DNA from: an uncultured Phycisphaeraceae bacterium
GTDB taxonomy: Bacteria; Planctomycetota; Phycisphaerae; UBA1845
DNA: 54,957 nucleotides
Direction of reading: 5' to 3'
Assembly: GCA_964405925.1 (NCBI GenBank)
Contig: CAYOQG010000003.1
Location: 1 to 54,957, forward strand
The notes beneath the pieces were generated by a model, which had not been told where the DNA came from, did not search any database, and was given only the letters and a program-made list of their open reading frames with translations. Position numbers and translations under genes: made by a program. Below, piece by piece: positions 11,984 to 30,092 of this stretch. Position 1 is the first letter of the stretch; each line of letters opens with the position of its first letter.

Positions 11984-13651
<1,668 letters not shown>

Positions 13652-13973
13652 CGAGCGTTTCAAAGGCTCGCCCCCGGCGATCACCACTGTATGGCTTCTC
13701 GCGTGGGTATTCTGAAGCTTCTGGCGGTGCTGCATCGGCATCACGGCTGGCGGCTGCTCGCGGAACACGGCTTCGTCCGATGGCCCTGCGCAGCCAGCAG
13801 GGCGAGGCGGCAACGACCCCTCGTGCCGTCCTAAATTATCTCTCGGCAAACCTGCCCAGTCAACCGAAACCGGCGTTTGTTCTTCCCCAAGGAGTCATTG
13901 GTGCAGGGCGTTATTTGTTTCAGCCTCGTTGAACTTCGAAGGGTTTGGCAGCGTTTCGCTCGCTGCCAGGCTC

Positions 13974-16101: not shown

Positions 16102-17667
16102 TCAGTCCGAGGCCTTATTTAGCTTCTCGACCTCGACAATATCGATCGCGATCGACCCGATCTTGGAGATCATGGGGAGGCTCAAGTCAGCTAGACCCGT
16201 GCTCTTGAGCGAGGAGGTCGCGAAGGCGATCCTGGTTGGACTGCACACGGTCTCCCGCAAGGCTGCGTCGACATCGACCCACCGTCCGTCTATATAGAAC
16301 TGGGTCCACATGTGGTAACCGAAGATGTCGTCCTGGCGCCCGAAGATCGGAACGTACGCGACGCCGACGGCCACACGCGAAGGCAGGCCGTTGATCCGAC
16401 CCAAAGCGGCGAGCAGGACCGCGTGTTCGCTGCAATCGCCCTCGCGCGTTCGGCACACCTCGCTCGCTGTCGCGAACCCGATGTTGAGCGTCTTGTTCGA
16501 GACGTAATCGGTCACAAATCGCCTAAGCCGGTCGGCAAGTGCGAACGGGTCAGCGTCGCCGTTACCGGCCCGCTTGGCCAGCTCGATAAGCTCCGGATCA
16601 CTCATGTTTATCATCAGGTTCGAGCTGAGGTACTCGTCCAAACCTTTTTGCCTCAGCGTGTCACCCTTTGACATATTCGGATCACTTGGAGTCTGCCTCT
16701 TGGCAGGTTTGTGCGGCATGCGAACGACCGTCAGTTCCACTGCTCCATCCGGTAGACGGGTGGGTGATTGCATATCCGTTGTGGGAATCTCAGAGAGGTC
16801 AACATCCGGTGCGGTGGCGTGTATCCGATACTTGACTCGCTTCAACTTCTTGGGATCAAGTTGTCGGTTGGCTTTGATCACCGTCTTCATGAACACTTCC
16901 GGTGGGACAAAGTCAGCGAGGGCGGTTCTTTGGTCGGTCGTGAGCATGACCATGTCTCCCAGGCCCGGGACGGGGAACTTCGCTTTCAAAGAGCGACCGT
17001 TTTCATCCACCCAAGAGGTCAGATCCATCTTACCCGTTGGTGCCTCGACCGTGACAAGGACCCGTTGGCCACGTCGGTTCATGCCGCGGTGCTCGAAGTC
17101 TTCCCACTCACCGATCTTTGTGGTGGCGGGGATGGGACCATCTTCGCGGAGTTCGGGTGAGTATGTTGTGATCGTGTATTGAGTCCCAGGTGTGAAACCA
17201 CGGAGGAGTCTCTCCCGATAGTCACCCCAGATCATCAAAGCTCCCGTTGGGTAGTCGTAGGTGTTTGTCTGGTCCATTCCGAGCTGGGACTTGACGATCG
17301 TAACCCGGCCGTCCTTGACCGTTCCCTTGACCGATGTCTTCATCACCGCAAGACTCATTTCAGATCCGAAGCTTACCGGAGTGCCGGTGAGTGTTTCTGT
17401 GGTCTCCTGCACCATTCGGATCTCGATCGGGCTCTCGACCCGCCCGATCTTCAACTGGGTGACGGTCTCGGTGTTGATCAGATCCCCCTCGCGGGCGATC
17501 GTAGACTGCATATAGCCGACCTTGCCCCCGGCCATGTAGACCTCTGCCCACTCATCCAGGAAGCGTCCCTGTGGCGGGTTATTCGGATCGATGACCTCTG
17601 CGCTGCAAGCCCAGACGCTGGCGGCAGGCCATAGGAGCAGCAACAGCATTGCGAGCAACCGTGTCAT
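16102..17667 (-). CDS. Secreted transglutaminase-like (Cys-His-Asp) domain protein
   Basis: Signal peptide MTRLLAMLLLLLW..., GDCSEHAVLLAALGR..GLPSR, YHMWTQ, WVDVD. GGAGA RBS. Confidence 0.9.
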   Translation of the reverse strand: MTRLLAMLLLLLWPAASVWACSAEVIDPNNPPQGRFLDEWAEVYMAGGKVGYMQSTIAREGDLINTETVTQLKIGRVESPIEIRMVQETTETLTGTPVSFGSEMSLAVMKTSVKGTVKDGRVTIVKSQLGMDQTNTYDYPTGALMIWGDYRERLLRGFTPGTQYTITTYSPELREDGPIPATTKIGEWEDFEHRGMNRRGQRVLVTVEAPTGKMDLTSWVDENGRSLKAKFPVPGLGDMVMLTTDQRTALADFVPPEVFMKTVIKANRQLDPKKLKRVKYRIHATAPDVDLSEIPTTDMQSPTRLPDGAVELTVVRMPHKPAKRQTPSDPNMSKGDTLRQKGLDEYLSSNLMINMSDPELIELAKRAGNGDADPFALADRLRRFVTDYVSNKTLNIGFATASEVCRTREGDCSEHAVLLAALGRINGLPSRVAVGVAYVPIFGRQDDIFGYHMWTQFYIDGRWVDVDAALRETVCSPTRIAFATSSLKSTGLADLSLPMISKIGSIAIDIVEVEKLNKASD

Positions 17668-17780
17668 TAGTGTGTCTCCGACAGTCGACCAACCGATCGT
17701 TTCGGTCGCTTGTCCGCACTCTGCTTGGGGCACCGACCCAAACCACGAGCTGACCCCAAACCCGACGGATCATATTCACG

Positions 17781-18539
17781 TTATCGCCCGAACCACTGTC
17801 GCATCTTGTGTAAAGTGGTGTCTCGCCCGGCTTGGGCGATCGACGTGGTGAGCGGGATATCTTTGGGGCAGACCTTCACGCAGTTCTGGGTGTTGCCACA
17901 ATCTGCGATGCCTCCGACGTCGGCGAGTATTTCCAGGCGATCCTCAGCCTCCCATTCTCCGGCGGGGTGCCTGTTGAACCGGATTGCCTGGGAGATGGCA
18001 GCAGGTCCGATGTACGGTGAGCGAGGGGTGACCTGCGGGCAAGCCTCCACACAGCACCCACAGGTAATGCAACCCGACAGTGAGTAAAGCTCTTCCTGTC
18101 GCGCAGACGACATGCGCGGCCCGGGACCCAAGTCGTGATAACCGTCAACGTGAATCCACGCCTTCACGTGTGCGAGCGTGTCAAGGATCAGACCGCGGTC
18201 AACAACCAGGTCACGCAAGACAGGGAACTTCGTCGTGGGGCTGAGCTCAATCCCCTCCCGCGACTCCTCAAGGAGTGAATCCACAAGGGCAGTGCACGCT
18301 TGGCGAACGTGGCCGTTAATCACCATCGTGCATGAACCGCACAGCTCCTGAAGACAGCAAGCCTCAAACGCGACCGGCGTGGTCTCGTGGTGATCCACCG
18401 TCATGGGATTGGCAGCGATACGCTGCAGCACGGTGATCACATTCATCCCGGATTCGTAAGCAAGCTCAAATACTTCCCAGCGGGATTGACTGTTTGGGGT
18501 TGGTTGTCTCAGGATTCTGACTTCGAAGGTCTCACGCAT
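17781..18539 (-). CDS. sdhB: Succinate dehydrogenase/fumarate reductase-type iron-sulfur subunit
   Basis: CLQELCGSC...C (2Fe-2S), DLVVD, CITCGCCVEACP, CGNTQNCVKVCP. GAGGA RBS. Confidence 0.92.
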   Translation of the reverse strand: MRETFEVRILRQPTPNSQSRWEVFELAYESGMNVITVLQRIAANPMTVDHHETTPVAFEACCLQELCGSCTMVINGHVRQACTALVDSLLEESREGIELSPTTKFPVLRDLVVDRGLILDTLAHVKAWIHVDGYHDLGPGPRMSSARQEELYSLSGCITCGCCVEACPQVTPRSPYIGPAAISQAIRFNRHPAGEWEAEDRLEILADVGGIADCGNTQNCVKVCPKDIPLTTSIAQAGRDTTLHKMRQWFGR

Positions 18540-18646
18540 CGATGTTCCTCGTTTGCAGTTTCCTTGTTTTGTGTCCGCCGTTTTCCAACCATCGGCGAAG
18601 CCAGCCCGGGCGTCGGGCCTTGGCATGGCGATCGACGATCTTCAAC

Positions 18647-20608
18647 TCAACCTTGTGTGCTTTGCTCCGACGGATGCAGCTCCCGCCAGACCCTCTCTAT
18701 GATTTCGCTTCCCTTCCGGCCCAGTGTTCCGGGTCTCGGTGGAAGCAAGCGGGTGTTTACAGCCTCATATTCGATCTCGGGACCGTCGGGTGTGTGGCGA
18801 GCCACGGTCGTTCTCAGCCATTTTTCGTTGTTCGCCTCGAACGCCCGGCACCAGGCCTCAGCCCGGTGACGCATCGTCGCCGGATCATCGGCGTCCGGTA
18901 AGGGCACTTCGCATTCCGGTTTGAAGTGGGTGCCGCGACATTCACCACGCAATAAAGCGCCCTTGGCGATAACCTTGGCAAGCGTAAGCATGTCGCCAAG
19001 TGTCCGGACAAAAATCAGATTCTGATTGAGCCAGTCCGACCTGTCTGAAAGGGTCACCCTCTCGTATCGCTCTTTCAGCTCGTCGATCTTCTCGAGGGTC
19101 ACACCAATGTCTTTGTCCCTCCGAACTGCCATAAGACTCTTGGTCATCGAATCTGCCAGTTCCCGGTGCAGTTCGTACGGATTCTCACCACCCTCGTTGC
19201 CCACGAGCTCACGCAGCCGCTTGGCATGGGGCGTGACAGCGTTATCAAACAGTGAGACCGGTTGATCCTCGGCGCTTCCGAAGGGAAGGGCTTGGACCCA
19301 ATTCACCACACTAGGTGCCACAATCAATCCGGAAAAGAGACTGCTCAAAAGCCCATTCCCGCTGAGGCGGCTGGCGCCGTGGTATTGGTAGTCCGCCTCA
19401 CCGACGACAAAGACACCCGGGACATTGCTATGGTGATTCCGCGTCGAACCGACAACGAGTCCCCCGGTTTCGCTCCTCTGCTCAAAGTCCGCCCACAGCC
19501 CGCCCAGAGAAGCATGGACACTCGGATAGACTTTCATGGGTTCAACATGTGGGTCGATACCCGTGGACTTTTGATAGACCTCCAGAAATCCATCCAGCTT
19601 GTCCAGCGTCTCCAGTGGCAAATCCGTGACATCAAGGTAAACGCAGGGGCGATCTCGATCCGCGCTTAAACCGCCCTTGACGCAAACGTCCACAAGTTCC
19701 CGCGTTGCGACGTCATCTGCAACAAGGTTGCCATACGCAGGGTAGCGCTCTTCGAGAAAGTAGTATCGATCGGTCGGTGGTATGGATGCCGGGTGGCGGT
19801 CATCCTGTGGGTTGCGCGGGACCCAAATGCGACCACCCTCACTGCGCACGCACTTGCTTACCACGCGGGCCTTGTCGGCACTCGGGACAGTTGTCGGGTG
19901 GAACTGGATGAATTCACCGTTGGCATAGTGGACACCATCTCTGTACGCTCGGGCGGCAGCGCTGCCGGTGGAAACGGTCGACGTCGCGTGATGGGCAAAG
20001 ATAGCCCCGCATCCACCGGTAGCCAGGATCACTGCATCGGCGGCGAAAGGCCGAATCTCCATGCTCACCAGGTCCTGCCCGACGACGCCACGGCAGTGAC
20101 CCTGGGCATCAAGAATCAAGCCGAGGAACTCCCACCTCTCAAACTTCTCGACCAGTCCTTCGACCTCCCACCGACGAACCTGCTCGTCGAGTGCGTAAAG
20201 CGTATGTTGCCCTGTGCCAGCGCCGGCGCAGACTACCCGAGCGAAGTGCTCGCCACCCAGACACCTTCGATCAACCAGACCCTCCGCCGTGCGGTCGAAG
20301 GAGACACCCAGTCGATCAAGCAGGTCTACGATCCGAGGACCCCAGGCACACATCTCCTTCACTGGGGGTTGATGTTGGAGAAACGCCCCCGTGCAGACGG
20401 TGTCCTCAAAGTGACTCCACTCGCTGTCACCGCGCTGTTTACCGAGGGCATTGACCGCATTGATGCCATCTTGGGCGCAGACGCTGGGCGATCGCCTGAC
20501 CGGAACCGCACTGATGAGGTAGATGCGGAGGCCGGCCTCGGCGAGTTTCATGGTGGTAGCGAGTCCAGCCACGCCACCACCCACAACGACCACATGCTGC
20601 TCTGCCAT
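18647..20608 (-). CDS. sdhA: SdhA/FrdA-family flavoprotein (Bacillus-type) with non-canonical active-site residues
   Basis: GGGVAG FAD loop, LATGG, EFIQFHPT, YFLEERYPAYGNL, HGASRL, ECRGTHFKP. Located between sdhC and sdhB homologues. Confidence 0.85.
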   Translation of the reverse strand: MAEQHVVVVGGGVAGLATTMKLAEAGLRIYLISAVPVRRSPSVCAQDGINAVNALGKQRGDSEWSHFEDTVCTGAFLQHQPPVKEMCAWGPRIVDLLDRLGVSFDRTAEGLVDRRCLGGEHFARVVCAGAGTGQHTLYALDEQVRRWEVEGLVEKFERWEFLGLILDAQGHCRGVVGQDLVSMEIRPFAADAVILATGGCGAIFAHHATSTVSTGSAAARAYRDGVHYANGEFIQFHPTTVPSADKARVVSKCVRSEGGRIWVPRNPQDDRHPASIPPTDRYYFLEERYPAYGNLVADDVATRELVDVCVKGGLSADRDRPCVYLDVTDLPLETLDKLDGFLEVYQKSTGIDPHVEPMKVYPSVHASLGGLWADFEQRSETGGLVVGSTRNHHSNVPGVFVVGEADYQYHGASRLSGNGLLSSLFSGLIVAPSVVNWVQALPFGSAEDQPVSLFDNAVTPHAKRLRELVGNEGGENPYELHRELADSMTKSLMAVRRDKDIGVTLEKIDELKERYERVTLSDRSDWLNQNLIFVRTLGDMLTLAKVIAKGALLRGECRGTHFKPECEVPLPDADDPATMRHRAEAWCRAFEANNEKWLRTTVARHTPDGPEIEYEAVNTRLLPPRPGTLGRKGSEIIERVWRELHPSEQSTQG

Positions 20609-20631
20609 AGTTGACCTACCGAGACGATTTT

Positions 20632-21411
20632 CTAGATGGTGCCCTCCTGTACACCATCACCGAACACGTACGACGCCGTGCTAGGTAGTTTCACCCGGTC
20701 ATTGTCTGCGACCCCGGTCCTCGCCGTGTCCAGGTCGAGCGTAGCGAGACCCCATACCGCCGCCAACCCCACGATGGCCAACACGATCCCGAAGACGGCG
20801 CAGACATAACCGCACGCGCGTTGCGTCCGCGGACGAATCGTAATGCCCCAGGTAATCAAAGCCGTCCAAACACCTGTAGCCAGATGGTAAACAGCCGCAA
20901 TCACGCCAATTGTATATACCGGTGGAACCAACCAGCTTGATTGGATGACGGCGGCGGTCGTACCAGGTGCCTCCAGCGGGTCAAAAACACCACCGCCGAG
21001 GGCCTTACCCAACCAGTGCATCTGCCAGAGGTGAAACAGGATGAACGCGAACGTGACGATCCCGGCCACCCGCTGAAGAACGAAGCGGATGTTGCCTGCG
21101 TAGTGGTACAAGTGGACGTTGACCTCGCCGCAGTACGTGATCTGGAGCCCCAACAAGGCGTGGAAAGCCAGCGGGATGAGGATGCCGAAAACCTCGACGG
21201 GGACCAGCAGCGATCCCAGCCCCTGAACAAGGTCGACGGTCCTCTGGTAGTCCACGCCTGGCTGGCCGGGAGCCAAAATGCTGGCATCAAGCAGCAGATG
21301 CAAACACAGAAACACGCCCACAGGGACGAGCCCGGTTAGCGAATGCAATCGGCGAATGAGGAAGTAGTGTGTGGCGCCGAAGCTTGCACGTTTGGGCAGA
21401 TGATCTGCCAC
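20632..21411 (-). CDS. sdhC: Di-heme cytochrome b558 membrane anchor (Bacillus-type SdhC)
   Basis: RRLHSLTGLVPVG, five hydrophobic helices, His ligands in HLLLD, FHALLG, FHLWQ and YHLATG, plus LITWGIT. Confidence 0.92.
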   Translation of the reverse strand: MADHLPKRASFGATHYFLIRRLHSLTGLVPVGVFLCLHLLLDASILAPGQPGVDYQRTVDLVQGLGSLLVPVEVFGILIPLAFHALLGLQITYCGEVNVHLYHYAGNIRFVLQRVAGIVTFAFILFHLWQMHWLGKALGGGVFDPLEAPGTTAAVIQSSWLVPPVYTIGVIAAVYHLATGVWTALITWGITIRPRTQRACGYVCAVFGIVLAIVGLAAVWGLATLDLDTARTGVADNDRVKLPSTASYVFGDGVQEGTI

Positions 21412-21544: not shown

Positions 21545-21688
21545 CCGGTGTTCCAAGGTCAGGACCCTCCGCGCGGTGGTCGCACGCGGTTCCCAGGCGA
21601 TGATCATCCAGACGGCTTGACCGCCGCAAAGGCGCGAAATACCCTACCGGTTTGACTGGTAAGTCCTGTGTTACGCACACATAATCCC

Positions 21689-22222
21689 ATGACGAAGTGC
21701 GGCCTGCCCAGTCCCGGGGCGCCGAAGCCGGGAGCTACCTTCCACCCCTTGGGGCCGCTCATTTTCCGCGTCGCCGCACGACGACCGGTCAGGGCCCGTG
21801 TGGCCGCCGGTGGTGTCTTCCTCGGATGTGCGACCTTGCTGATCGCTGCGAGCCAACTTCAGCCCGATAGCGCCGGTTTTGGATCGCATCAGCAGCTTGG
21901 CCTACCGCCATGTAGCCTGCTGGTCGTCGTCGGGTATCCCTGTCCAACGTGCGGCATGACTACGGCCTTCGCCCACGCCGTGCGTGGTCAGTTTGTGTCC
22001 GCCTTTCATGCCCAGCCGGCGGGCCTCGCCCTTGTGATCGGAACGGTCGCGGCAGCCTCCCTCGCCTTAAGTACTTTATTGACCGGTCGAGTCTGGGCGG
22101 TTAACTGGTACCGTGTTTCACCCACCTGGGTGGTGTTCGGCGTCGTGCTTCTTGTTATCGGCGGGTGGGTTTATAAGCTCGTTATGGGGATTGTGTCAGG
22201 GACCCTGCCGGTTACGAGGTAA
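21689..22222 (+). CDS. DUF2752 family membrane protein
   Basis: GSHQQLGLPPC......GYPCPTCGMTTAF motif and three TM segments. Confidence 0.88.
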   Translation: MTKCGLPSPGAPKPGATFHPLGPLIFRVAARRPVRARVAAGGVFLGCATLLIAASQLQPDSAGFGSHQQLGLPPCSLLVVVGYPCPTCGMTTAFAHAVRGQFVSAFHAQPAGLALVIGTVAAASLALSTLLTGRVWAVNWYRVSPTWVVFGVVLLVIGGWVYKLVMGIVSGTLPVTR

Positions 22223-25013: not shown

Positions 25014-26831
25014 TTACCACCCCACTGGTCCGTACTGACCGACGCAGTGATGCCCGATCTCTTGGCACGTGAAGATCCCGAACCACGCGCCTCCTTCTTG
25101 AGCGCAGCACGCCTGCGATGTATCGACGCATGTTGCATCCGGGAGGCAACAAGCTCTCTCGGGAGTACATCCCGTGCTCGGGCCGACGAAGGTTGCCCCT
25201 TCTGCCACACGACAGGCTTCGTTCAACTGCGCGCAGGTTGCATTGTCCAAACAGCAAGCGCCGCCTTCACATCCAACACCATCCCCGCCGAACACTCCGC
25301 CGGCTTGATCGCAGCACACGTCAGACATCGCAACGCACGAATCATCGGTCATGCAGCACCCTCCGACGGAGTCTTCGCACTCGTCCGGTATCATGTTGCC
25401 GTCCAAGTCGTCGCTTGTCCCTGATGCGATATCGCAGATGTCCTGCACGCTATTGGGTTGACAGTCTTCTTGAGGTTCGCACTCATCGGGAATATCGTTG
25501 AGGTTACGGTCGCTGCTCTGTCCGCACCCGGGAACGTCGCACGCACCACCGGGCGATCCGCAATTGATATCGCACCCATCAGCTATATCGTTCACGTTGC
25601 AATCGGCGCATACACCGGTCGGGTTCTCCAAAGCGTTCTGCAAGAAACGATTATCGAGCGCAGTGCCAATGTTGTACCCAAGTGTATCGCATGGACCGTG
25701 TGTATGGATCGCGTACACGAGCCCACGACACTCGTGTTCGACCGGTGATCCCGAGTTCCCGCCCTCCGTGTCGATGTCGTAATGTACTTCACCATTCCCG
25801 CCACCGACGTAGATTCCTTTCCCCGTTTGCTGTCGTCCACTATACGACGGATTGTCATCGTCGAATCCGTAACCGGTCATTGCCAACACCGTGTCGTCGG
25901 CATCGGGTACATCTGTCTTTGGAAGGCGATAAAACGCACCGTTCTGCCCTTCCAGCGGGGTATCATGTACCCAGTTTCCACGAACACCGAGAACGCACCA
26001 GTCATTCCCGGGCCCGCTGTCCTGGTAATGGCTCTGGGGCACGGATTCCTCATCGACCGGATACTGATCGCGGGGGGCAAAGTCGTTGAACTGCACGACC
26101 GCCGGAAACACCGGCATCCCTTCACAGTCTTCCCAATTGATCGCTGCGCAGCAGTGCCCGGCGGTCAGGAGCCAGTTCGGCCGCCCGTCGATCAGGAACG
26201 CTGTGCACGTCTCGAGAATCTCACATGCCGAGTCGATGAACAGTCGCATTCGTCCCGTGCGTGGATCGTCCGACGGTTGGCGATCGTCCGTCCCACATAT
26301 GCTCTTGAGCCCGCTGCCGGGATCATCCGTTCCGGTGACGATCCAGTCGACAATCACCCTGTTGCCGCCCGTATTCCTGTAAGCGAGCAGTTCCAACAGG
26401 ACCGAATCGCCGTTGAAAAACGCCGTCGTGTTGCGCCAATCACCCAACCCGCGCGAGTCCAGGAGCTGGAAGTCTGCATCTTCCTGCGACGTAATGCTGA
26501 GGTATGACTCGTTCCCAGCGGTCGCTGAGCCACTCAATTGCACGCTCGAGAAGTGCAGGCGCATCCAAGGCACCCCTTCGACCGCAATGATCTGCGAATA
26601 TACAACCACTGGTTCCTCGCCCTGTCCAGTGGCCGACACGACCCCTGAGTCGATATCAACTTCGTGTCTGTCAATGGAATTGTACCCTGGCATGGGCACT
26701 GGGTCGCCAAACCCCGCGTCTTCGAGCGTGGCTGCCATCAGCAATGCCAATGCCCAGTGCGACATGACCCACCAAGCATCCCTCGCGCAAATGGTTCCAG
26801 ACTGGATCCGCATTGATAGGAGCCTCATCAT
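25014..26831 (-). CDS. Secreted trypsin-like (S1) serine protease with Cys-rich C-terminal repeats
   Basis: Triad motifs LTAGHC, GNDW, DTEGGNSGSP. DCNxNxIxDxC repeats and three GxCC/RACC repeats. Strong GGAGG RBS. Confidence 0.9.
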   Translation of the reverse strand: MMRLLSMRIQSGTICARDAWWVMSHWALALLMAATLEDAGFGDPVPMPGYNSIDRHEVDIDSGVVSATGQGEEPVVVYSQIIAVEGVPWMRLHFSSVQLSGSATAGNESYLSITSQEDADFQLLDSRGLGDWRNTTAFFNGDSVLLELLAYRNTGGNRVIVDWIVTGTDDPGSGLKSICGTDDRQPSDDPRTGRMRLFIDSACEILETCTAFLIDGRPNWLLTAGHCCAAINWEDCEGMPVFPAVVQFNDFAPRDQYPVDEESVPQSHYQDSGPGNDWCVLGVRGNWVHDTPLEGQNGAFYRLPKTDVPDADDTVLAMTGYGFDDDNPSYSGRQQTGKGIYVGGGNGEVHYDIDTEGGNSGSPVEHECRGLVYAIHTHGPCDTLGYNIGTALDNRFLQNALENPTGVCADCNVNDIADGCDINCGSPGGACDVPGCGQSSDRNLNDIPDECEPQEDCQPNSVQDICDIASGTSDDLDGNMIPDECEDSVGGCCMTDDSCVAMSDVCCDQAGGVFGGDGVGCEGGACCLDNATCAQLNEACRVAEGATFVGPSTGCTPERACCLPDATCVDTSQACCAQEGGAWFGIFTCQEIGHHCVGQYGPVGW

Positions 26832-26861
26832 CCCTCCTTCCTCCGTTGCTGCCCTCTACGC

Positions 26862-27572
26862 CTAAGCCGACCCTGGATTCCGTTTTGCCAATAACGATCC
26901 AACGGTCAACAAGAGCAAGCCCATTACCACCAGCCCCCACTCGGATACGGTCGGGATCGGGACCCCGAGGCTTTCCAACCCCAGTCTCGACCCGGCAATC
27001 TCCCCGGTGAACGCACGCCATGTGAATTGGGGGTAATCAGGCTCGGCTCGGTGTGTTCGGATTTCAGCGCCGAATGCCTCGCTTGGATCATCAGCGTTCA
27101 GAACGTCCACGTTGTAGACCCCGGGCGCCCGTGGAATCACCACGTCGATGGCCCCAATGTGAACAGACTCCTCCGGCGAAAGCTCCAGGAAGAAGGGGGC
27201 GCACCCGCAGTCCACAAAATTCGCGATCCACGGAACCGGCAGACTCGGATAATGAAAATCGTCGTAGTAGTATCCCCCGTAGGGGAACGCGCTGAAGTCG
27301 AACGTGAACCACGGAGCGAGCGTTATCTCTGGATCAGTATCCGAGAAATCGAATTGAATCAACTCGAGCAGGACGTCGATCGTCGCCTCGCTGTGCAGCC
27401 AAACATGGATGGTCAGTTCCTCCCCACCCACGTAGGGGCCAGCGTGTTGCGGTACAAGCCCAACCCGTACCGCAACCTCCGCCTTGGCACCTGACACTAT
27501 CATGCCAAGGAAAAGGCCGATCATAACGCGCCGAATGATCTTCATCAAGCTCGATCGCGTGAAAGGGTCCAT
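26862..27572 (-). CDS. Secreted protein with IPTL-CTERM sorting signal (possible cohesin-like beta-sandwich)
   Basis: Signal peptide ...SGAKA. C-terminal IPTVSEWGLVVMGLLLLTVGSLLAKR. GGGAGG RBS. Confidence 0.85.
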   Translation of the reverse strand: MDPFTRSSLMKIIRRVMIGLFLGMIVSGAKAEVAVRVGLVPQHAGPYVGGEELTIHVWLHSEATIDVLLELIQFDFSDTDPEITLAPWFTFDFSAFPYGGYYYDDFHYPSLPVPWIANFVDCGCAPFFLELSPEESVHIGAIDVVIPRAPGVYNVDVLNADDPSEAFGAEIRTHRAEPDYPQFTWRAFTGEIAGSRLGLESLGVPIPTVSEWGLVVMGLLLLTVGSLLAKRNPGSA

Positions 27573-27623
27573 GATAAGCCTCCCACGGCTGACTTCGCTC
27601 AACGCAGAGTTGCCACTTTCAGC

Positions 27624-27652
27624 ATGGTAACGCCCCAGCCCTCAGGCGCCAA
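27624..27652 (-). promoter_or_regulatory. Putative sigma70 promoter for the IPTL-CTERM gene
   Basis: TTGGCG-N17-TACCAT. Confidence 0.35.
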
Positions 27653-27874
27653 GACAAGTTTTTGCTCTTTTTTTTGGCGCCGGTAAAGGAGTGCGGCAAG
27701 CAAGGAGCCTGGAGGCGGATATCCCCCGGAATACCGCGATCCCAGGGCTAGGACAACCGATGGCACTGCGTTTCACCCTTCACCCCTCGATTCAGAAGGG
27801 TGACGCGCGCACATTCGGAGCGAAGGTCGTAGATCCGGTCTTAGGCGGAATCGGACACCTGCCAGATGTTTCGC

Positions 27875-27904
27875 TTGCATGGGTACACCTACACCGGGTA
27901 GAAT
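27875..27904 (+). promoter_or_regulatory. Putative sigma70 promoter for the Asp-box protein
   Basis: TTGCAT-N18-TAGAAT. Confidence 0.5.
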
Positions 27905-28019
27905 CGCGATTGCAGACATAGGGAGCCGTTAATGTGGGCGAACGAAGACCACACCGAGCTCAACGTTGGGTTGAGCGGAGAGAATGCTCCCTCAATCCTG
28001 TCTTCGCGGCGGAAGAAGG

Positions 28020-30092
28020 ATGCGACTCTCACGAGCGATCTTTAGTGCTCTCGGTATAGGTTGTGTGTTGCTTCCGGGTTATGCCCAGCAACCGCTTGAA
28101 TCGACAAACAGGCAAATCAGTGCGTTGAGCGACTTCCGCGAAGCGTTGGATGATCCGCCCATTTTTGTGAAACGGTCCGATCAGCCGGTGTCGCCCGCAG
28201 TCGTGTGGACGCGCAGCACGCACGAGAGCATACAGGTGAACGTCGATGAATTCGGCAACAACATCGTCGGCGATGCCGCCAACGAACCGTCGATCGCGGT
28301 CGATCCGACCGACCCCAATCGTATGGCCATCGGCTGGCGGCAATTCGACACCGTTGAGAGCAACTTTCGTCAGGCCGGCTGGGGCTACACGGTTGACGGC
28401 GGCCAATCGTGGACCTTCCCCGGCGTCATCGACCCGGGCGTCTTCCGCTCCGATCCCGTGTTGGATTTCGACCTCGACGGTAACTTCTACTACTCGGCCC
28501 TGACAATCGACCCCTATTCGGTCGACATGCACAAATCGACCGACGGCGGTGTGACTTGGGGATCATTCGCTTACGCCTTCGGCGGTGACAAGCAGTGGAT
28601 CACCATCGATCGCACCGGCGGCATGGGCAGCGGGAATATCTACCAGGCGTGGAGCCCCTGGGGTAGCTGTTGTGGCGCCAATCTGTTTACGCGTTCCACG
28701 GACGGCGGGTCAACTTATGAGAACCCGGTTCCTGTTGCAGGCGATCCGTTTTTTGGCACATTGACCGTCGGTCCGGATGGAACACTCTACATCACCGGTT
28801 CGTCAGGATACCCATACGGTATTGGGAGTACCCTCCTGGTGGTCCGGTCGACGAATGCCCAGAACCCTCTTGCTACACCGACGTTCACCGTTGCGGCCGA
28901 GGTTGACCTCGGCGGCCCCCTCGGGCTCGGGACCACCCCTGGTCCGAACCCCGCGGGACTTCTTGGGCAGCCGTGGATTGCTGCGGATCATTCCGGTGGG
29001 CCGACCCACGGTAACCTGTACCTGCTGGCGTCGGTTGACCCGTCCGGCAGCGACCCGCTGGACGTTATGTTCTCACGCAGTACCGATGGCGGGTTTACGT
29101 GGAGTTCTGCCGTCAGAATCAACGGTGATCCAGTCGGCACGAACGCGTGGCAATGGTTTGGCACTATGTCGGTCGCACCCGATGGTCGGATCGACGTGGT
29201 GTGGAACGACACGCGTAACTCGGGCACCGACAACCTGTGTGAGCTCTATTATTCGTTCTCAACCGATGCGGGCGTGACTTGGTCGGAAAACGAGGTCATC
29301 AGTCCGATGTTCGATAGCCACGTCGGGTGGCCTCAGCAGAACAAGCTCGGCGATTACTATGACATGATCTCCGACAACACAGGTGCCAACCTCGCCTGGG
29401 CGGCCACGTTCAACGGTGAGCAAGACGTCTATTTCACGCGAATCCTTCCGTTCGACTGCAACGGCAACGGTGTTGATGACAGCGAGGACATCGCCCTGGA
29501 GAACAGCGCCGACGTGAACGAGAACGGCGTTCCTGACGAATGTGAGGGGCCTTTGGTGTTGGCTGAAGGGTGTCGTTATGTGGCGGCGACACCGGGCTTG
29601 GGGTCAGATCGCCTAGCTCTGCGGGTGACCTCGCCTGATTATCCCTGTCTGGACAAGTACGTGGCTGCTAATGGGCGGCTTACCGATTCGCCTGTTTATC
29701 GTACGGGCGATGAGTGGGGCACAGCCCACGTGCACGGACGAGACATCGTCCCTGCGACTACCTATGACGTGCTGATGGAATTCGAGGCCGGCGGGTCGAC
29801 CGGGCCCTTCACCGCGACCACTCCTGGCTGGGGCGACGCGGTTGGTGACTTCATTGACGGCCGATGGACGCCACCGAATGGCGTTGTGGACTTCAATGAT
29901 ATCGGTGCTGCGGCGGACGCTTTTAAGCATCTGCCAATCGCCCCGCCATGGCGACGGTGCGACGTCGCAAGCTCCGTGTCCGGGGCCGAAGAGATCCCCG
30001 AGGGTGTGATCGATTTTTCTGACATCGGCTACATCGTCGACGCCTTCCGCGGCAACGATTATCCATTCGACGGCCCGGGCGAGTGTCCATGA
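28020..30092 (+). CDS. Secreted BNR/Asp-box beta-propeller protein (sialidase-like fold) with dockerin-like C-terminus
   Basis: Signal peptide. Asp-boxes TVDGGQSW, STDGGVTW, STDGGSTY, STDGGFTW, STDAGVTW. GDYY, DCNGNGVDD repeat, twin DFxDI...DAF loops. Confidence 0.85.
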   Translation: MRLSRAIFSALGIGCVLLPGYAQQPLESTNRQISALSDFREALDDPPIFVKRSDQPVSPAVVWTRSTHESIQVNVDEFGNNIVGDAANEPSIAVDPTDPNRMAIGWRQFDTVESNFRQAGWGYTVDGGQSWTFPGVIDPGVFRSDPVLDFDLDGNFYYSALTIDPYSVDMHKSTDGGVTWGSFAYAFGGDKQWITIDRTGGMGSGNIYQAWSPWGSCCGANLFTRSTDGGSTYENPVPVAGDPFFGTLTVGPDGTLYITGSSGYPYGIGSTLLVVRSTNAQNPLATPTFTVAAEVDLGGPLGLGTTPGPNPAGLLGQPWIAADHSGGPTHGNLYLLASVDPSGSDPLDVMFSRSTDGGFTWSSAVRINGDPVGTNAWQWFGTMSVAPDGRIDVVWNDTRNSGTDNLCELYYSFSTDAGVTWSENEVISPMFDSHVGWPQQNKLGDYYDMISDNTGANLAWAATFNGEQDVYFTRILPFDCNGNGVDDSEDIALENSADVNENGVPDECEGPLVLAEGCRYVAATPGLGSDRLALRVTSPDYPCLDKYVAANGRLTDSPVYRTGDEWGTAHVHGRDIVPATTYDVLMEFEAGGSTGPFTATTPGWGDAVGDFIDGRWTPPNGVVDFNDIGAAADAFKHLPIAPPWRRCDVASSVSGAEEIPEGVIDFSDIGYIVDAFRGNDYPFDGPGECP

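Follow-up and report, generated by a model that had tools for sequence, protein, structure and literature searches.

The window examined here, a 54,957-nucleotide stretch of contig CAYOQG010000003.1 from an uncultured Phycisphaeraceae bacterium of sediment, carries three uninterrupted minus-strand open reading frames (ORFs) encoding, in the order sdhC-A-B, a complex of the succinate dehydrogenase (SDH) type. An earlier note on this DNA, made from its letters alone, had called the operon unframeshifted, as it is, and its flavoprotein, here SdhA', rewired at the active site. The first gene, sdhC (20632..21411), encodes a diheme cytochrome b558-type anchor; sdhA' (18647..20608) encodes a 653-amino-acid flavoprotein with a putatively disarmed dicarboxylate site that retains the dinucleotide-binding motifs GGGVAG, ATGG, and GE; and sdhB (17781..18539), which probably starts at ATG 18539 rather than 18626, encodes a subunit with three Fe-S clusters. 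As had been anticipated, annotation pipelines would label this operon SDH, as it fits Bacillus-type profiles and matches TIGR01811 at 561 bits, above the cut-off. The NF006392 score of SdhA' (745 versus 855 bits) and the TIGR02046 score of SdhC (81.5 versus 96 bits) fall below theirs, as does SdhA' against the L-aspartate oxidase profile TIGR00551 (210 versus 453 bits).

Residue correspondence was read from alignments to the solved Escherichia coli FrdA and Chloroflexus SdhA sequences, and sites are given in the E. coli SdhA numbering of the earlier note, which we assume to apply. Every motif and codon named there was found in place on the minus strand, and the mapping held. RSPSVCAQDG contains Pro41 (CCC, 20486..20488) instead of the His45 that binds flavin adenine dinucleotide (FAD) covalently, and Asp47 (20468..20470) instead of Gly51; SKCVRSEGG contains Lys252 (AAG, 19853..19855) instead of Glu255; GNLVADDVA contains Asp298 (GAT, 19715..19717) instead of the catalytic Arg286; HASLGG contains Ala366 (19511..19513) instead of Tyr355; and SRLSGNGL is also present. 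Leu117 (20258..20260), replacing Phe119, had escaped notice, as had many further changes, and the Ser404 equivalent is likewise replaced. SdhA' thus lacks the covalent 8-alpha FAD His, the catalytic Arg, and the relay Glu. The carboxylate-binding equivalents were retained (His242 as H237, Thr/Ser254 as S251, His354 as H365, and Arg399 as R414), and the claim that the metal sites are intact also proved correct, with 13 of 13 Cys columns of the 2Fe-2S, 4Fe-4S, and 3Fe-4S clusters kept in SdhB and 4 of 4 heme His (H38, H84, H127, and H176) kept in SdhC, where ligands were assigned by analogy to PMC12663545.

Catalytic roles of His44, Glu245, and Arg287 are described in PMC5773532 and PMC10238741, and covalent FAD is needed for succinate oxidation according to PMC2680327, which reports that losing the covalent His leaves an assembled, active enzyme. 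That result, together with the sediment habitat, would suit a one-way menaquinol:fumarate reductase with noncovalent FAD, resembling the methylmenaquinol:fumarate reductase (MFR) of Wolinella. However, the proton-donor Arg is Asp and the relay Glu is Lys in SdhA', which scores 174 bits against the 1100-bit cut-off of MFR profile NF042982, and this reading is very improbable.

The changes are concentrated in the flavoprotein and in its active site. Of 279 SdhA columns invariant across 22 family orthologues, 64 (22.9%) are altered in SdhA', compared with at most 4.1% for any left-out orthologue. The corresponding fractions are 8/83 (9.6%) for SdhB, where the predicted contact surface with SdhA accounts for 6 of the 8, 3/46 (6.5%) for SdhC, and 3/125 and 1/35 (2 to 3%) for neighboring genes. 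Within SdhA', the active-site motifs have changed at 20 of 45 residues, against 35 of the 195 invariant residues outside them (P = 0.0003). Contig X4, from another sediment study, spans positions 20460 to 20560 with no differences, so that Pro41 and Asp47 are seen again in independent data, and a contig of X1, the probable source run, spans 19797 to 20559 with no differences, confirming Lys252 (the Asp298 codon lies outside its range). A contig of X7 that does span the Asp298 codon has 11 differences from the window. Because both contigs match, the changes at His45 and Gly51 are not assembly errors.

Among the 120 best matches, 118 were canonical at every motif, and the sole close homologue was P0003 (79% identity; its annotated start omits the first 12 residues), which shares the His-to-Pro, Gly-to-Asp, Phe-to-Leu, and Arg-to-Asp changes. 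The substitutions are thus not private to this assembly. By their names, the closest homologues point to a planctomycete, probably of the Phycisphaerae. P0003 retains Glu255, and the reciprocal Glu-to-Lys and Arg-to-Asp swap, put forward earlier as compensatory, is for that reason not a defining feature and would be a late, lineage-specific event in which the Glu-to-Lys change may be a charge compensation confined to the window lineage. A search for further clade members with region 25-75 returned P0003 only, variant-specific DNA patterns had no matches in genome and metagenome contigs, and an ESM Atlas search returned generic SDH clusters only.

A stem of 0.54 changes per column precedes the split between the window protein (P0001) and P0003, and the two share 30 derived residues at invariant columns, including Pro41, Asp47, Leu117, and Asp298. 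Such a history could produce a neofunctionalized quinone-linked oxidoreductase with noncovalent FAD and a new substrate, for example one with a carboxylate on His354/Arg399 and a cationic end toward Asp47/Asp298, and the retention of H237, H365, and R414 agrees with it. Against it, the two members already differ at position 252 (Lys and Glu), at 366 (Ala and Ser), and at 419 (Gly/Gln), and released sites keep drifting, having changed again at 15 of 45 columns, much as variable columns did (47 of 113; P = 0.37) and at three times the frequency of still-canonical ones (23 of 216). Active-site motifs differ between the two at 9 of 45 residues versus 28 of 195 elsewhere. On these alignments no stable new active site is evident and released positions do not appear to have been refixed, a comparison limited to the two full-length clade members known.

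Selection on the window copy was estimated from contigs of related populations, in which synonymous and nonsynonymous differences numbered 21:19 and 11:10 (40 of 49 and 21 of 24 differences counted), or 32:29 when pooled. The ratio of nonsynonymous to synonymous substitution rates (dN/dS) for window sdhA, read from these low-depth contigs, was 0.26 to 0.36, well below 1 as the earlier proposal required, with a pooled 95% interval of 0.18 to 0.51 that rejects both 1 and 0.07. Canonical congeners had values of 0.05 to 0.07, and the second SDH type found within the genus (described below) 0.04 to 0.10. In neutral simulations at 0.14 changes per site, the sdhA frame stayed free of stops in 0 of 400 runs. 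Because dN/dS is about 0.3 and the frames are intact, SdhA' is not in free decay; it is under purifying selection about fivefold weaker than that on canonical SdhA. While a dN/dS below 1 would also suit an enzyme with a new substrate, 7 of 18 nonsynonymous changes in population X7 fell on already-released columns, which argues against a newly fixed pocket.

A second SDH, 43 to 45% identical and canonical at all motifs, is encoded on contigs C186 and C395 of the same genome, supplying the canonical sdhA that the earlier note had advised looking for. Among tabulated matches in 100 family genomes, 69 genomes had the type nearest the window gene (53 to 70% identity), 29 had the second type, and 3 had both. 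First-type sdhCAB adjoins a transglutaminase-like gene and/or a DUF2752 gene in 14 of 14 fetched family loci (12 and 11 loci, respectively). Both genes flank the window operon as conserved context outside the complex: the transglutaminase-like gene downstream (16102..17733, minus strand), marking the ancestral sdh locus, and the divergent DUF2752 gene upstream (21668..22222, plus strand). Trees place window SdhA and SdhB within the first type, and SdhA' is 60 to 66% identical to canonical planctomycete SdhA. Given the shared neighbors, the tree placement, and the second canonical SDH, the window operon is the ancestral, positionally orthologous sdhCAB of the family, made redundant by a second copy.

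Redundancy of this kind raises the question of slow decay, in which a paralogue of no useful function lingers under weak selection against misfolded or truncated subunits while it is transcribed, until it is cleanly deleted. In all five genus mates examined the transglutaminase-like and DUF2752 genes are adjacent and the operon has been deleted, three of them keeping an sdhB remnant. Among the 100 family genomes no other close copy was found (best identity, 66% over long matches), and all 40 additional SdhA proteins examined from the family and the class were canonical. None of 15 other loci from the family and order held a disarmed copy. The roughly fivefold elevation of dN/dS, the approximately 1.3-fold acceleration of SdhB and SdhC, and an SdhB interface that shows no special conservation would also be expected of such a relic. 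Yet the frames and all metal ligands have outlasted about 0.7 to 0.8 amino acid changes per SdhA column, and dS of about 1.8 at the second sdhA of G005, the nearest genus mate by neighbor-gene identity, represents ample time for deletion. With the myxobacterial evidence below added, slow decay is improbable. Apparent Arg286 changes in L073 to L075, L207, L209, and L211 were pairwise misalignments of other subfamilies and were discarded.

Several observations concern SDH loci of these families more generally. The sdhB remnant corresponds to the 3' end of window sdhB and the bases after it (17762..17846, minus strand) and persists as 40 to 85 bp, 82 to 91% identical, in genus mates G001, G004, and G005, despite nearly saturated synonymous sites in these genomes. 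An element that regulates the transglutaminase-like gene may overlap the remnant, in which a search for a sigma-70 promoter gave no match. At L067 (G081:C63, 4583 to 12673) the genes form a tandem sdhC-sdhA(type II)-sdhB-sdhA(type I)-sdhB-transglutaminase array with both SdhA proteins canonical and a single sdhC. The second type sits at the ancestral locus in L078 (G077) and L083 (G091), which suggests in-place replacement of the first, and it also occurs in myxobacterial genomes G179, G420, and G460, so it seems mobile between phyla. The operons of L084 (G114:C28), L192 (G161), and L273 (G373) are canonical except that sdhA runs across two or three frames, through assembly error or as a pseudogene.

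Disarmed SdhA proteins also occur in other bacteria. A library was drawn from the 150 top-ranking representatives of 50%-identity clusters by keeping the 89 that reach 520 amino acids or more; 64 lacked Arg286 and/or Glu255, 21 lacked the His only (mostly NadB-like by motif), and 4 were canonical. Proteins that diverge fast are overrepresented in this library, misalignment or broken genes may explain some of its rows, and it carries no genomic context. The 64 retain GxGxxG, ATGG, Gly387, and mostly Asn403, and they release the same columns as the window protein (retention of 0.19 versus 0.54). The nearest SdhA was from Sorangium or Polyangium for 43 of 66 library rows. In the SdhA tree disarming arose at least four times, and SdhA and SdhB trees alike reject one common clade, so the planctomycete and myxobacterial cases are independent; SdhA trees were quick, a careful SdhB tree served as a check, and the groups tested were named after earlier trees had been seen.

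These relatives bear further on the new-substrate reading. In its favor, proteins of other lineages also show the changes of His45 to Pro and of Gly51 to Asp. Opposed to this, the 64 proteins have no consensus at Arg286, His354, Tyr355, or Arg399, no consensus pocket appears among them or within the myxobacterial clade, and no new conserved catalytic set is evident at class level. The 21 His-less relatives keep Glu and Arg, urocanate reductase, although substrate switched, keeps and needs the proton-donor Arg according to PMC7921117, and the window locus has not acquired genes for a pathway or a transporter. An enzyme with a new substrate is accordingly an unlikely explanation. Of the earlier proposal of noncovalent FAD with a new substrate, the first part is supported in that no covalent FAD is possible at His45; the second is not indicated, as released sites keep changing and a shared pocket is missing among the 64.

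The myxobacterial cases were sampled in the family to which G117 (Byssovorax) belongs, presumably Polyangiaceae. Of 301 genomes searched there, 179 had a strong match; 44 loci were fetched for a low score or odd range, and 27 of the 44, a lower bound, were disarmed, with 24 to 61% of invariant columns changed. The 27 form one clade in a FastTree SdhA tree (support, 1.0) that SdhB trees leave unresolved. sdhB adjoins 24 of the 27 genes and sdhC 25; G414 has neither within 10 kb, and the other gaps lie at contig edges. Throughout the clade 11 Fe-S Cys are retained but for one Cys-to-Ser change, and the four heme His are kept in 25, 25, 24, and 20 of 25 SdhC proteins. Arg286 survives in 7 of the 27 that lost other catalytic residues, and in G324 and G347 the match contains a single stop close to its end. 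Close-pair dN/dS was 0.26 to 0.32 for SdhA, 0.16 to 0.29 for SdhB, and 0.15 to 0.19 for SdhC; distant GC-rich canonical pairs (0.34 to 0.40) are saturation biased and were not used as a control. Active-site motifs differed at 16 of 131 residues in close pairs and other once-invariant columns at 40 of 549, so the motifs are no more conserved. Survival of frames and metal ligands over branches near 1.0 across 27 species-level genomes, with SdhC at canonical constraint in most members, argues against slow decay.

A second SdhA/FrdA with canonical motifs was present in 26 of the 27 disarmed genomes (partial in G506 and G325). Redundancy looks necessary, and not sufficient, for disarming; an initially stronger contrast with controls (26/27 versus 3/14) was dropped once added controls made it 26/27 versus 12/27. 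No disarmed copy was found among 40 plus 9 loci from an order-wide myxobacterial sample, and no accessory gene shared by planctomycete and myxobacterial loci was seen. As a separate observation, an ABC permease cluster, presumably MlaE-like, adjoins 12 of 21 disarmed myxobacterial loci (including L238) and 1 of 13 canonical ones.

Binding of E. coli fumarate reductase to the flagellar switch, described in PMC10238741, offers a precedent for a noncatalytic partner role, and FliG is encoded in the window genome (G000). However, FliG occurs in 15 of 27 disarmed versus 9 of 20 motif-checked canonical myxobacterial genomes, and all 6 genus mates have it, including the five known to have lost the operon. 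The link is unsupported, and we consider it the least likely of the alternatives. FliG was found in 24 of 60 searched genomes of this myxobacterial family, although its cultured members are not known to be flagellated.

Structure prediction gave SdhA' a confident fold (pLDDT, 93; pTM, 0.93) whose best matches were SdhA and FrdA, so that a predicted fold has been retained under purifying selection while catalytic residues were lost, a pattern expected of a pseudoenzyme. The SdhA'-SdhB model scored 0.93 versus 0.00 for the best control, with contacts agreeing at 95% or more and partner pLDDT of at least 91; 116 of 157 solved pairs reached the docking mark, as did 2 of 215 mismatched ones, and SdhA'-SdhB may pass through its likeness to solved complex II. 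Selection focused on the SdhB interface was not found, as 6 of 38 predicted interface positions changed versus 31 of 179 other invariant ones. The genome also encodes menaquinone synthesis (futalosine MqnA/D family) and a heme-copper oxidase.

In view of the retained metal ligands, the drifting substrate site, and the genes for menaquinone synthesis and a heme-copper oxidase, SdhA' is on balance probably, if far from certainly, a pseudoenzyme flavoprotein that would cap a retained Fe-S/diheme wire linked to the menaquinone pool and pass electrons unspecifically or to a partner. Without the covalent His, covalent FAD would not form and succinate oxidation would not be expected; without the proton-donor Arg, neither would fumarate reduction. 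The flavin would be a noncovalent, low-potential FAD in a folded, probably FAD-binding cap predicted to dock on SdhB. Electrons could then run from menaquinol through heme, Fe-S clusters, and flavin to oxygen or a protein partner, and the selected job would be a noncatalytic or unspecific electron hand-off. In this scheme we infer inactivity from residue loss and electron transfer from ligand retention.

A number of observations weigh against the pseudoenzyme interpretation. The five genus mates manage without this operon, and a second SDH is not sufficient for disarming, since G009, G073, and G081 also have one; likewise, 12 of 27 canonical myxobacterial controls have a second match, although not all were motif checked and kin are not independent. 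The equivalents of His242, Ser254, Arg258, His354, and Arg399 are intact in both clade members, which fits a remodeled pocket equally well, and the two new Asp residues (47 and 298) common to both are compatible with one, as is the recurrence of Pro at His45 and of Asp at Gly51, each in 19 of the 64 disarmed proteins. With just two full-length members in the clade, any test of fixation is limited. The read-derived dN/dS depends on low-depth contigs and few counted differences (40/49 and 21/24), and close populations inflate the ratio. Conservation at the predicted SdhB interface does not exceed that at other invariant positions, SdhC has changed near its hemes (N42D, H63Q, and N179T), and myxobacterial SdhB has no domain-level gradient toward the membrane (37% versus 43%), a gradient appearing in motif loops only (54/40/20%).

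Comparison with known systems helps to place the window operon. In gene order, fold, three Fe-S motifs, and four heme His it resembles the Bacillus-type diheme succinate:menaquinone oxidoreductase SdhCAB (TIGR01811, NF006392, NF006391, and TIGR02046), and its nearest solved relative is the Chloroflexus aurantiacus SDH (PDB 9LAY). Unlike these enzymes it has lost the equivalents of the covalent His, Gly51, Phe119, Glu255, Arg286, Tyr355, and Ser404, with dN/dS of about 0.3 versus 0.05 to 0.07. The operon descends from Bacillus-type SdhCAB but fails two defining catalytic features, and for that reason ought not to be catalogued among active SDHs. Like the window copy, the Wolinella/Campylobacter MFR (SdhABE) is annotated as SDH and lacks the covalent-FAD His, and it cannot oxidize succinate; in contrast to the window copy, with no proton-donor Arg and a diheme SdhC, it is a periplasmic enzyme that reduces fumarate and carries an SdhE-type anchor (PMC2680327). 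Urocanate reductase (UrdA) and L-aspartate oxidase (NadB) are likewise SdhA-fold flavoproteins with a changed substrate, but UrdA keeps the catalytic Arg and has fixed specificity residues (PMC7921117). The NadB-like proteins of the cluster library keep Glu and Arg, as does this genome's own NadB-like gene on C130 (EAVRGEGA and LAPRDVV), and neither UrdA nor NadB lies in an sdhCAB operon. SdhA' has neither the catalytic Arg nor the stand-alone, non-sdhCAB context of those two enzymes. Noncatalytic roles of complex II, namely, flagellar switch binding and SDHA assembly intermediates, are a precedent for SdhA/FrdA beyond catalysis, although they represent moonlighting by active enzymes and not the dedicated disarmed paralogues seen here (PMC10238741). 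Open-access full text yielded no description of disarmed sdhCAB paralogues, a result that does not establish their absence from print.

Elsewhere in the window, positions 11984 to 13849 encode a long sigma-70-family factor (621 amino acids) whose N-terminal region is extended and which family members conserve close to the locus. The region from 25014 to 30092 encodes large, probably secreted proteins, including a trypsin-like peptidase with a Cys-rich tail, an IPTL-CTERM protein, and a 702-amino-acid repeat protein with a look-alike on contig C186.

A broader and more doubtful proposal is that a spare complex II has repeatedly been turned into a substrate-free redox module, a wire of diheme, Fe-S clusters, and noncovalent flavin that would read or drain the menaquinone pool and supply a cytoplasmic partner with electrons or a redox signal, with His45-to-Pro and Gly51-to-Asp selected because they prevent flavinylation and shut the dicarboxylate site; such modules might form an unrecognized class of pseudo-SDH in Planctomycetota, Myxococcota, and other phyla. 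In at least 27 of the 301 genomes sampled from one myxobacterial family, an SDH call made by profile can mislead. The retention of a whole respiratory complex without its active site, several times independently and over long branches, points to work done by complex II besides succinate chemistry, and the disarmed copies are natural mutants for finding out what it is.

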